Source: an uncultured Gemmatimonadales bacterium (GTDB taxonomy: Bacteria > Gemmatimonadota > Gemmatimonadetes > Longimicrobiales > RSA9). Taken from it: a DNA stretch of 64,000 nt. Shown one piece after another: positions 4,620 through 48,491 of this stretch. The stretch's first letter is position 1; each line of letters opens with the position of its first letter. Under the pieces are notes generated by a model, which did not search any database, was not told where the DNA came from, and saw only the letters and a list, made by a program, of their open reading frames with translations. Location: assembly GCA_963708135.1 (NCBI GenBank), contig OY970192.1, positions 4,896,001 to 4,960,000 on the forward strand. The letters run 5' to 3'. Made by a program: the position numbers and the translations under genes.

Positions 4620-5022
4620 GCCGGTCACGTGGTCAGCTCCATGGCACGCGGCCCACAGGTTCTCGGAGGGATTCAGGCGAACGTACGCCCCGAAACGCGC
4701 ATCGGCAAGCCGACACGCCGGGCCCGCCGCGACTCTCAATCCACGAACGTGTTCCGACTCAGCCGCCCCCGGCACGCGTCCTCATGAGGTCGTACCAGAG
4801 GCACGTGAGCTGCTCCGGGTGCGCGCGGACCAGGTCCAACCGAGCACCGAAGTTCGGCCCCCCGGGGTTCGGCCCTTGCGTGGGGCGGCCGGCCATGATC
4901 CTCCGTCCGGCCGACCGGGGGGCGTCCGCCGATCGCCTGGCCAACGCGTTGAAGGCCACCGCGACCCGGTCGTTGCCGATCTCGAGATGTTCGACCTGGT
5001 CTGGCGCACCGAGGACCGCTTC

Positions 5023-5375
5023 GGGTGCCGCAGTCGGGTGCCGCAGTCGGGTGCCGCAGTCCGGGTGCCGCAGTCGGGTGCCGCAGTCCGGGTGCCGCAG
5101 TCGGGTGCCGCAGTCCGGGTGCCGCAGTCCGGGTGCCGCAGTCGGGTGCCGCAGTCCGGGTGCCGCAGTCGGGTGCCGCAGTCGGGTGCCGCAGTCGGGT
5201 GCCGCAGTCGGGTGCCGCAGTCGGGTGCCGCAGTCGGGTGCCGCAGTCGGGTGCCGCAGTCGGGTGCCGCAGTCGGGTGCCGCAGTCGGGTGCCGCAGTC
5301 GGGTGCCGCATCCCGGGTCCCGGGTCCCGGGTCCCGGTCCCGGTCCCGGACCCGGGCCCGGGCCCGGGCCCGGAC
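5023..5375. repeat. About 22 tandem copies of 13/14-bp GGGTGCCGCAGTC(C), followed by CCCGG[G/T] short repeats
   Basis: Read directly from the sequence, immediately downstream of the potC stop. Confidence 0.92.
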
Positions 5376-14836: not shown

Positions 14837-15522
14837 GACCAGCCGGCGTCGGCGGACGCAGTCGGCACAACTCACCACTCGAGACGGATCGGGAAGCGAG
14901 TGATGGGTTCGGACGCCTCCACGAGCCCGAGCCGCCCGTCGATTTCCGGTGTCCGGACGAGTGGCAGCTTGTGCCGGCCAAGCGTGCAGAAACCCGCCGC
15001 CGCATGCGCCAGTGCGACGAGTGGCGCGTTGTGCACCCGGCACACGCGCGCCGCGGGTGGCCCGAGACCAGCCGGCGTCGGCGGACGCAGTCGGCACAAC
15101 TCACCACTCGAGACGGATCGGGAAGCGAGTGATGGGTTCGGACGCCTCCACGAGCCCGAGCCGCCCGTCGATTTCCGGTGTCCGGACGAGTGGCAGCTTG
15201 TGCCGGCCAAGCGTGCAGAAACCCGCCGCCGCATTTGCCGGTGCGACGAGTGGCGAGTTGTGCACCCGGCACACGCGCGCCGCGGGTGGCCCGAGACCAG
15301 CCGGCGTCGGCGGACGCAGTCGGCACAACTCACCACTCGAGACGGATCGGGAAGCGAGTGATGGGTTCGGACGCCTCCACGAGCCCGAGCCGCCCGTCGA
15401 TTTCCGGTGTCCGGACGAGTGGCAGCTTGTGCCGGCCAAGCGTGCAGAAACCCGCCGCCGCATTTGCCGGTGCGACGAGTGGCGAGTTGTGCACCCGGCA
15501 CACGCGCGCCGCGGGTGGCCCG
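14837..15522 (+). repeat. Three near-identical tandem copies of a 229-bp unit, each containing a ~170-bp core with 17-bp inverted ends
   Basis: GACC anchors at 14837, 15066 and 15295; arms GCACAACTCACCACTCG and CGAGTGGCG[A/C]GTTGTGC. Confidence 0.93.
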
Positions 15523-40119: not shown

Positions 40120-40833
40120 GTGGTGCCGGTGGGGCTGAGCGAAGCGCTTCAGCACAATCCGCTCGTGGCGGTCGCGGTGCTGTTCGGCGCGGGGGTGCTG
40201 ACCAGCCTGACACCCTGCATCTACCCGATGATCCCGATCACGGCGGGCGTGATCGCCGGGACGTCGGGCGGGGTGGGGGCGGGCCGGAGTCGGCGGCGGA
40301 CGGCCGTGCTGACGTTGGCGTACGTGGTCGGGCTGGCGCTGGTCTATGCCCTGCTCGGGCTGCTGGCCGGGATGAGCGGCTCGCTGTTCGGGTCGGTCGC
40401 GTCCAGCCCGTGGGCGAGGATCGCGGTGGGCAACCTGCTGCTGCTCTTCGGGCTCGCGATGCTGGACGTCTTTCCGCTCGCGCTGCCGGCGCGGGTGGTC
40501 GCGTGGGCGGGGCGGCGGCGGGGCGGCTCCGTGCCGGCCGTGTTCCTGCTCGGGGCGACGTCGGGGGTGGTCGCGGCCCCGTGCGGCGCGCCCGCCTTCG
40601 CAGCCGTGCTGACGTGGGTGGCCACCACCCGCAGCGCGCTGCTCGGGTTCGTCTACCTGTTCGTCTTCTCGCTCGGGATGACGGCGCTGCTCGCGGCGGT
40701 CGGCCTCTTCTCCGGGACGCTGGCCAGCCTGCCGCGCGCGGGGGTGTGGATGCTCTGGAGCAAGCGGGTCGCGGGGATCCTGATCCTGCTCGTCGCCGAG
40801 TACTACTTCATTCAGGCAGGGATGGTGATGTGA
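40120..40833 (+). CDS. ccdA: CcdA/DsbD-beta-like disulfide transporter
   Basis: LTSLTPCIYPMIPIT and VAAPCGAP. Confidence 0.85.
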   Translation: MVPVGLSEALQHNPLVAVAVLFGAGVLTSLTPCIYPMIPITAGVIAGTSGGVGAGRSRRRTAVLTLAYVVGLALVYALLGLLAGMSGSLFGSVASSPWARIAVGNLLLLFGLAMLDVFPLALPARVVAWAGRRRGGSVPAVFLLGATSGVVAAPCGAPAFAAVLTWVATTRSALLGFVYLFVFSLGMTALLAAVGLFSGTLASLPRAGVWMLWSKRVAGILILLVAEYYFIQAGMVM

Positions 40834-41357
40834 TGTCGAGCCACACCCGCAGGGTCGTTCTCTCCGGCGCGCTCCTCGGCGCCGCGCTGCTTCTCGCTCC
40901 GGGCGCCGCGCGCGCTCAGGACGTCGGGCTCGCGCTCGGCTCGAGGCCGGCGCCCGTGGTGATCCAGGACCTGGCGGGCCGGCCGGCGGACCTGGGCCGG
41001 TGGATCGGCCGCAAGCCGGTGCTGCTCGAGTTCTGGGCGACGTGGTGCCCCCTGTGCCGCGCGCTCGAGCCGCGCCTGGCCGCGGCGCGGAAGGCGTTCG
41101 GCCAGCGGGTCGCCGTCGTCACCGTGGCGGTCGGCGTGAACGAAAGCCCGCGCTCGATCAAGCGCCACCTGGAGGACCACCCGATCGGCGGACCCGTGCT
41201 GTGGGACGGCGACGGCAAGGCGACGAGGGCGTTCGAGGCGCCGTCCACCTCCTACATCGTCGTGCTCGACCGTTCCGGGCGCGTGGTCTACACCGGCGCG
41301 GGGGCGGATCAGGATGTCGAGGCGGCGATCCGGAAGGCCCTTCCGCCCCGCTCCTGA
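40833..41357 (+). CDS. TlpA-family thioredoxin-like protein (exported)
   Basis: Signal peptide (ARA-Q), EFWATWCPLC; TGATG coupling to ccdA. Confidence 0.88.
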   Translation: MSSHTRRVVLSGALLGAALLLAPGAARAQDVGLALGSRPAPVVIQDLAGRPADLGRWIGRKPVLLEFWATWCPLCRALEPRLAAARKAFGQRVAVVTVAVGVNESPRSIKRHLEDHPIGGPVLWDGDGKATRAFEAPSTSYIVVLDRSGRVVYTGAGADQDVEAAIRKALPPRS

Positions 41358-41358
41358 A

Positions 41359-41490
41359 CGGACGGGCAGGGGAACGGGCAGGGGGACGGGCAGGGGGACG
41401 CGGACGGGCATGTACCGCAGGCAGATACCGCAGGCACGGGCAGGCTCACGGGCAGGCTCGCGGGCAGGCTCGCGGGCAGGCTCACGGGCG
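41359..41490. repeat. Two short 12-bp tandem arrays (ACGGGCAGGGG[A/G]; GCAGGCTC[A/G]CGG)
   Basis: Read directly from the sequence, between convergent genes. Confidence 0.75.
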
Positions 41491-41573
41491 GCGGAAGGGG
41501 CGGCGGCGCGGGCACCCGACCATCGGCCCTTGCCGCTGCCCCTGTCCGGTGCCGCCGACCTTCCCATGGCGTC

Positions 41574-42176
41574 CTACTGGGACGGCTCGGCAGCGGGGCC
41601 GGGCTCCAGCTTGTCGATCGCGGCGGCGAGATCCTTGTACGCGGTCGGGTCGATCTCCCGGAACGGCGTTGCGGTGTAGGCGATGCGGCCGTCGGGGCCG
41701 ATCACGAACAGGTTGCGGTTGTCGAAGTTGCGGCCGGGGATGGTCGCGCCGTAGCGCCGGCCCAGCGCGCCATCGGCGTCGCTCGCCATGACGAACTGGA
41801 ACTGGTCGTCGTGCGCCCAGGCGGCCAGCGTGTCAACCGGATCGGTGCTCACGGCGATGAGCACGACGTTCTGGCCGGCGTGGAAGAGCTGCGCGTACTG
41901 ATCACGGTACGCGTGCATTTGAATCGTTCAGCCCTTGGTCCGGGCCTTTATGAAGAAGGACAGGACGACGGTCCTCCCCTTGAAGTCGCTCAACTGGATC
42001 GGCTCCTTCAGCACGCCGTAGCGCGTGGCCCCGGGGAGCGAGAAGTCGGGCGCGACGGTGCCGACCTCGAGGGGCGGGTGCGCCTCCTTCGTGGCCGGCT
42101 GCTGCTGTGCCGCGGCGCCCGCCAGGGGCAGCGCGGCGAGGCCGAGGGCGAGAAGCAATGAGCGGCTGCATCGCAT
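41574..42176 (-). CDS. Exported peroxiredoxin (BCP/AhpC-TSA) selenoprotein, Sec at codon 83
   Basis: GGAGG RBS and signal peptide; APDFSL...LSDFKGRTVVLSFFIKARTKG-TGA(41928-41930)-TIQMHAYRD...IAVSTD...RNLFVIGPDGRI, all in one frame. Confidence 0.88.
41890..41917 (-). promoter_or_regulatory. Putative bacterial SECIS element
   Basis: Starts 10 nt after the UGA: UGC-AC-GCGUAC-[CGUGAUCA]-GUACGC-GCA. Confidence 0.72.
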
Positions 42177-48274: not shown

Positions 48275-48491
48275 CGCAAGGCGCAAGCGCAAGGCGCAAG
48301 CGCAGGACGCAAGGCGCAAGGCGCAAGCGCAAGACGCAAGCGCAAGCGCAAGCATGGGGGAGGGGGCGCTCCCCTGCGCTTGCTCTTGCTCTTGCTCTTG
48401 CTCTTGCTCTTGCTCTTGCTCTTGCTCTTGCTCTTGCTCTTGCTCTTGCTCTTGCTCTTGCTCTTGCTCTTGCTCTTGCTCTTGCTCTTGC
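48275..48491. repeat. (GCGCAAG)n-type array followed by about 19 copies of CTTGCT
   Basis: Read directly from the sequence; the two arrays are roughly complementary. Confidence 0.9.

Follow-up and report, generated by a model that had tools for sequence, protein, structure and literature searches.

The locus lies in a window of 64,000 nucleotides, by which we mean the whole stretch of DNA analysed, from the genome of an uncultured Gemmatimonadales bacterium present as one contig with 72% GC. It contains a predicted peroxiredoxin gene (prx) with an in-frame TGA codon and a hairpin downstream of it, as well as a ccdA-tlpA gene pair on the opposite strand (Table 1). Reverse-strand translation of 42176..41574 yields 200 residues with a single internal TGA at codon 83, in the context KARTKG*TIQ, which bears out the proposal of a preliminary description that two open reading frames here are one frame broken by this codon. 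GC3 is 0.94 upstream of the TGA and 0.91 downstream. The only Cys of the encoded protein is residue 3, within the signal-like N-terminus, so the mature protein would have none, as had also been claimed.

The interval between the convergent tlpA and prx stops (window positions 41360-41514) may be a terminator region for both genes; two short 12-bp tandem arrays are present in it, as is a long GC-rich hairpin. A promoter scan at prx found no sigma-70-like site and one intragenic terminator-like match, which is at chance level. Tandem repeats are also present elsewhere in the window, at 14837-15522 (3 x 229 bp at 99%), 5021-5310 (22 x 13 bp at 97%), 825-1213 (15/28-bp arrays), and 48375-48491 (19.5 x TGCTCT), and a cluster of 22 tRNA genes occupies one strand of about 4 kb elsewhere in the genome (G000:C1:5377229-5381066).

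Table 1. Features of the prx locus, with positions counted from the first letter of the window.
Feature	Position	Strand	Basis and remarks
CcdA/DsbD-TM membrane electron carrier (putative)	40120..40833	+	Pfam PF02683 1.9e-44, synteny
TlpA-like thioredoxin with signal-like N-terminus and WCPLC motif; candidate reductant	40833..41357	+	Pfam Redoxin/Thioredoxin, translation, synteny
Exported 1-Sec peroxiredoxin CDS (predicted)	41574..42176	-	200-aa precursor, about 177 aa mature; ends TAG; translation, Pfam AhpC-TSA, model
Signal-peptide-like segment, residues 1-23	42108..42176	-	Sequence anatomy: basic N-region, hydrophobic core, cleavage-like site between AAA and Q
Ile76 at Pro position of PxxxTxxC/U	41949..41951	-	F, Y, I or V in 91/100 TGA copies
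Thr80 of TxxU motif	41937..41939	-	Conservation of 90% or more in alignment A2
In-frame TGA, inferred Sec83 at peroxidatic position, first turn of active-site helix	41930-41928	-	Alignment, column reading, model
Bacterial SECIS	41890..41917	-	Core stem 41913-41907 / 41898-41892, loop CGUGAUCA 41906-41899, weak outer extension
Arg154, catalytic Arg of peroxiredoxins	41715..41717	-	Invariant in 75/75 rows of A2; aligns with Arg of 2ywn

In an alignment with BCP/PrxQ proteins of solved structure (2ywn, 2cx3), the TGA column corresponds to the peroxidatic Cys, in agreement with the preliminary description; however, the motif expected there, P...TPGCT.E, is not the one found, which reads I-KAR-T-KG-U-TIQ and is missing the Pro. 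We read the catalytic column in 150 distinct Gemmatimonadota copies (151 loci), a set from which duplicates and partial hits were removed and to which stop-free forms were added on purpose, so that it is enriched for Cys forms and its kin are not independent: the column is TGA in 100 copies, Cys in 48, Tyr in one, and Asp in one. Homologues were thus found to carry the Cys or conserved TGA that had been proposed as a check. As the same column is TGA in 100 distinct gene copies, chance can be rejected, and the sequences on both sides of it are conserved, with mean identities of 70% and 55%. The copies with Tyr (TAC) or Asp (GAC) at this column (L081:841-843 and L138) are probably inactive or contain sequence errors. 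At the prx locus the public protein collection holds only the downstream 114-aa fragment, which indicates that gene callers split the gene, as had been predicted of standard annotation.

The hairpin downstream of the UGA has a core stem of 7 bp (CGCGUAC/GUACGCG) and an 8-nt loop, CGUGAUCA, whose second and third letters are G and U; the core stem begins 14 nt and the loop 21 nt after the UGA. An earlier placement of the stem-loop 10 nt after the UGA with G at loop position 2 is therefore correct as to the G and not as to the start, as outer stem pairs beginning at 10 nt occur only in some folds. According to the accessible text of PMC13188914, a bacterial SECIS has a loop of 3-9 nt, a stem of 4-16 bp, G in the first two loop positions, a distance of 16-37 nt from the UGA, and an MFE <= -7.5. 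The prx hairpin conforms to each of these rules, its distance being that of the loop and its energy -10.5 to -12.4 kcal/mol. Folding energy was rejected as evidence for the SECIS, because the hairpin is no more stable than shuffled sequences (z 0.04), and no compensatory changes are found in the stem among TGA copies, where it is invariant. The reality of the element thus rests on conservation. The 6-bp core stem is intact in 100/100 TGA copies versus 3/48 Cys copies, and even of the 12 Cys copies encoding the same AYR..Y residues just three have the full stem. One loop sequence is shared by 96 of the 100 TGA copies. At synonymous sites the TGA copies are frozen: the Arg codon is CGT in 98/100 (versus 9% elsewhere in these genes), the Asp codon is GAT in 97/100 (versus 27%), and the Ala codon is GCG in 100/100 (versus 48%). 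This codon freezing is the evidence for the SECIS, and the expectation that relatives would keep both the TGA and the hairpin was confirmed.

The genome also encodes the machinery for Sec insertion. Matches to selA (573 bits), selB (320), selD (383), and tRNA-Sec (69.7) all exceed the family cut-offs, and ARAGORN identifies a tRNA-SeC(tca), so that selA, selB, selC, and selD, which the preliminary description had proposed to look for, are all present (with tRNA-Sec(UCA) for selC). Of 60 relatives, 39 have a close TGA-bearing match, and selA was found in 38 of these, the lone miss being a genome that is 62% complete; in family f3, selA was found in 0/12 and a close match to prx is likewise absent. 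In a comparison set of 55 hand-picked genomes, tRNA-Sec was found for 22 of the 23 in which a TGA copy had been checked at the column; 17 genomes gave no tRNA-Sec, and in 16 of these all copies are non-TGA. The exceptions are G107, with a TGA copy and no tRNA-Sec found in its 210 contigs, and G026, with a Cys copy despite selA and tRNA-Sec. We conclude that what looks like an internal stop is almost certainly a codon for selenocysteine in the active site.

Across the phylum, a search detected a homologue in 346 of the 401 genomes sampled (E <= 1e-25), a tally that takes in one unpublished genome, G202, used nowhere else. TGA is held by 145 of the best 150 listed matches, with the column checked only for part of them. 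Records name Gemmatimonadota for 14 of 15 related loci. One Sec-type copy with the same SECIS and with ccdA-tlpA nearby (L050) belongs to a record titled Rokuibacteriota, reflecting either transfer or mis-binning. Loci of genus g89 (L101, L102, L104, L106, L139) contain a Sec copy and a Cys copy in tandem, both with Pro, possibly as a selenium-independent backup. A plasmid search for prx returned one 45% match and no close relative of the Sec type.

Other in-frame TGA codons are present in this genome. The selD gene (L004, G000:C1:4175745, minus strand) contains one of its own (AG-U-ACK), with a strong hairpin unlike the prx SECIS. An AhpC-TSA-family frame (L159:1095-1571, plus strand; TGA at G000:C1 3721223) includes FYRGRW-TGA-SHC, a Prx-like UxxC arrangement with a hairpin after the TGA and no signal peptide from the nearest ATG, and is likely a second selenoprotein of this genome. 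A genome-wide scan for TGA plus hairpin gave 51 candidates; most are ordinary gene junctions, and the list should not be taken for a selenoproteome.

The Pfam AhpC-TSA match of the prx protein spans the TGA (3.2e-28, residues 38-167), and among solved structures BCP/PrxQ and AhpE peroxiredoxins match it best. A structure model, computed from the 75-row alignment A2 with C modelled for U, has a mean pLDDT of 94 and a thioredoxin-type peroxiredoxin fold, with residue 83 opening the active-site helix and the peroxidatic residue thus in its first turn; a fold search with the model returned only peroxiredoxins among the listed hits (TM 0.76/0.83 to Bcp4). Two residues characteristic of peroxiredoxins are present, Thr80, three positions ahead of the peroxidatic residue, and the distal Arg154, as are family-specific segments invariant in A2, such as GATRxG and PFRExDP. 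There is no resolving Cys: Cys after residue 25 occurs in 0/100 TGA copies, consistent with the 1-Sec enzyme originally proposed. The protein departs from the strict PxxxTxxC/U motif, with Ile76 at the Pro position seven residues before the peroxidatic residue, and it reaches none of the NCBIfam peroxiredoxin cut-offs, scoring 55.7 against 270 bits for NF040737 (PrxU) and about 65.7 against 140 bits for NF006960 (BCP), with no match to NF045827 (Prx-SUH) at 1e-5. Because both the strict motif and all the equivalog cut-offs fail, it is a variant and not a canonical Sec peroxiredoxin, although its sequence indicates that it works like one.

The absence of the Pro is a property of the Sec form at large. 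In the 100 TGA copies this position is F in 56, Y in 30, I in 3, V in 2, and Pro in 9, whereas Pro is kept in 50/50 non-TGA copies of the 150-copy set. Among the best 120 database hits, 119 are full-length homologues, of which 114 are Cys proteins, 110 of them with Pro; overall, 158 of 162 Cys forms have Pro and four lack it. The five further database homologues, which have a Sec-type context, contain W (two), L (two), or V (one) at the catalytic column. Based on this pattern, the motif Pro may be dispensable or disfavoured with Sec, while near-universal in Cys forms.

The N-terminus of the prx protein resembles a signal peptide, and by a crude hydropathy heuristic 75 of the 100 TGA copies fit one; based on these features, the protein is probably exported to the periplasm. 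The stop codon of the neighbouring ccdA shares one base with the start codon of tlpA, and tlpA is convergent with prx. The same pair recurs elsewhere: tlpA adjoins 56 of the 100 TGA copies, convergently in 54 and co-directionally in two, so prx and tlpA are not co-transcribed at these 54. Of 23 distant Cys copies, 17 also adjoin tlpA, with ccdA, tlpA, and prx following one another in the same direction, versus only one of 27 closer non-TGA copies. No tlpA is present in the available flanks of the other 44 TGA copies (36 of 87 when at least 1.2 kb is available on both sides). In a control that clustered the ORFs around 98 TGA loci, ccdA was found at 47 and the next genuine family at no more than 6. 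The ccdA-tlpA pair is the only recurrent neighbour of the TGA copies; prfC was considered as a conserved neighbour and rejected, as it is next to prx in this genome only. A single-Sec enzyme without a resolving Cys needs a thiol reductant from outside, and by analogy with the ScsB-TlpA-PprX system of Caulobacter, CcdA, TlpA, and Prx may well form an envelope relay, a proposal we hold with modest confidence. In the accessible text of PMC3322552, electrons pass in Caulobacter from ScsB to TlpA and on to the periplasmic PrxQ-type peroxiredoxin PprX. Other partners exist in the genome, which contains a second DsbD-TM gene and 11 matches to the AhpC-TSA family.

These elements can be assembled into a mechanism that, as a whole, is likely: a UGA-decoded, exported selenoperoxiredoxin reduced by the neighbouring TlpA and CcdA. 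SelB and Sec-tRNA-Sec would be recruited to the in-frame SECIS and the UGA translated, with Sec inserted at codon 83, a step about which we have very little doubt, to give a 200-aa precursor that the signal peptide would carry into the periplasm. There Sec83, held by Thr80 and Arg154, would attack H2O2 or organic peroxides and form a selenenic acid; judging from the fold and these residues, it probably reduces peroxides as other peroxiredoxins do. A TlpA-type CxxC protein would then reduce Prx, and CcdA would keep TlpA reduced using cytoplasmic thioredoxin.

That the TGA instead reflects a pseudogene or a sequencing error, or that it separates two small genes, one for an 82-aa exported fragment and one for a 114-aa protein from Met87, is barely credible. 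Gene callers do report the 114-aa fragment, and Met87 is kept in 98 of the 100 TGA copies; however, it is also found in 41 of 48 Cys copies, which makes it a residue of the protein and not a restart signal. A check of related-strain contigs, mostly from relatives, gave no other letter at the TGA codon, and is weak, with no strain-level read over the codon and a near-identical contig ending before it. Among the sequencing runs listed as containing this DNA, none was of RNA. The recurrence of the TGA in distinct copies from several families, with both halves conserved, argues against decay or error, and each half would be without the catalytic residue and a single fold would be split. Very improbable as well is a UGA read as Cys or Trp, or only conditionally, the main product being a Cys-type enzyme or else a truncated peptide that serves as a selenium-dependent switch. 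Sulfur can substitute for selenium in Sec pathways, and W or L stands at the catalytic column of three database homologues with Sec-type context, although the W and L codons differ from TGA by a single base and could reflect errors. TGA also serves here as a normal stop (in tlpA and prfC, and as the terminator of 32 of the 100 TGA copies) and the anticodon of tRNA-Trp is CCA, on which grounds reassignment of UGA to Trp was rejected, and the TGA codon is accompanied by a SECIS and by the Sec trait. An exported selenoprotein with a peroxiredoxin fold could, finally, act mainly as a redox relay for, or reductase of, some other substrate in the envelope (e.g., oxidised thiols or selenium/sulfur species) and not as a peroxide scavenger. 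We regard this as unlikely: the bulky residue that replaces Pro in most TGA copies, the basic K/R-A-R loop, the scores below all NCBIfam cut-offs, and the family-specific invariant segments are compatible with it, as is a Caulobacter Prx-like protein, PrxL, without detectable peroxidase activity in the accessible text of PMC3322552, yet Thr80, Sec83, and Arg154 are all retained, close Cys orthologues have a complete PxxxTxxC, and the best structural matches are all peroxiredoxins.

Within the preferred reading of a peroxide-reducing selenoenzyme, the association of Sec with the loss of Pro may itself be explained in two ways. Three trees were used: a quick one, a careful one of 67 rows in which the columns of the active site and the SECIS were masked, and a FastTree of 269 rows. 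In the masked tree, starred branches place Pro+Cys rows inside groups of non-Pro Sec rows at least twice (L032 at 100/88; L026, L079, and L082 at 98/92), monophyly of all Pro rows is rejected (p-AU 0.016, the group and rows having been chosen after the first tree), and the nested Cys copies keep the residues of the Sec clade between both sites (FFPKARTRGC). These observations suggest co-evolution of Pro and Sec, with repeated coupled switching. The pattern could also be one of shared ancestry, or of a short active-site segment transferred from Cys paralogues, without any functional coupling, a substantial possibility even if not the one toward which we lean. The two sites are just 21 nt apart, nine TGA copies contain Pro and four Cys proteins do not, and many tree branches are weak; in the 269-row FastTree, Pro+Cys needs 25 changes, only four of which are forced by starred branches. 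A sign test of Pro versus Sec on independent pairs gave about three in the same direction and none opposite (p 0.25, not significant), so repeated coupled switching is suggested only and short-segment transfer is a live rival. The nesting that persists after masking, the rejected single clade, and the retained neighbouring residues all argue against this rival.

Periplasmic peroxiredoxins are known, and selenium peroxiredoxins are as well. In the accessible text of PMC13188914, Sec peroxiredoxins (TxxU) count among the families verified by experiment and PxxxTxxU is called highly conserved, and that of PMC1794560 counts 12 Prx selenoproteins and five Cys-to-Sec events, with no Sec-to-Cys event. 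In the accessible deep-Sep supplements (PMC12013277), three Sec-Prx sequences keep the Pro (YPKDSTPGU, YPGDFTFVU) and have no signal peptide; the terms Gemmatimona and Longimicrob have no match there. The prx protein shares with the Sec 'Prx' family (PF00578/COG1225, PrxU of Eubacterium acidaminophilum, WP_011365628.1) a UGA at the peroxidatic position, TxxU, a downstream SECIS, and the AhpC-TSA domain, and differs from it in that the Gemmatimonadota form is, by its sequence, signal-bearing, is without a resolving Cys, and has mostly lost the Pro. BCP/PrxQ and AhpE proteins (Sulfolobus Bcp4 3hjp, 2ywn; Aeropyrum 2cx3; M. tuberculosis AhpE 1xvw/1xxu) are the best matches in sequence and fold (TM 0.72-0.78 by query), with Thr, the peroxidatic residue, and Arg aligned, and AhpE is likewise single-Cys; compared with these, the prx protein is 25-29% identical, has Sec for Cys, no Pro, and a signal peptide-like N-terminus, and is below the NCBIfam BCP cut-off. 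As far as the accessible text of PMC3322552 extends, PprX of Caulobacter crescentus is an exported BCP/PrxQ-like Prx, as is predicted here, and its reductants there, a DsbD-family carrier and TlpA, correspond to the conserved neighbours here; however, PprX is thiol-based, and the carrier at the present locus is of the CcdA type, with 237 aa and the transmembrane domain only, and the relay is deduced from synteny. Searches of the open-access literature, with subscription papers and bioRxiv supplements outside their scope, found no paper on selenocysteine or selenoproteins of Gemmatimonadota or on signal-bearing bacterial Sec peroxiredoxins. The form widespread in Gemmatimonadota departs from described Sec peroxiredoxins in that the Pro is mostly lost and that the gene is often beside a likely membrane electron-supply pair.

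Because gene callers split prx, a common selenoprotein of the Gemmatimonadota has been concealed in protein databases. The link to ccdA-tlpA names a testable electron source for it, and the Sec/Pro pattern lends itself to a four-way mutant test of the effect of selenium on a peroxiredoxin active site. We tentatively propose, while considering it somewhat doubtful, that the Gemmatimonadota envelope contains a CcdA-TlpA-selenoperoxiredoxin pathway that has switched repeatedly between two coupled states, Sec with F, Y, I, or V and Cys with Pro. If this hypothesis is correct, it would be sulfur chemistry that makes the 'universal' Pro of peroxiredoxins necessary, and selenium would remove that need, or alternatively the bulky residue that replaces the Pro may shield the selenenic acid in an oxidising periplasm; in these proteins, nature would then have run the same experiment several times on the reason for Sec in enzymes.
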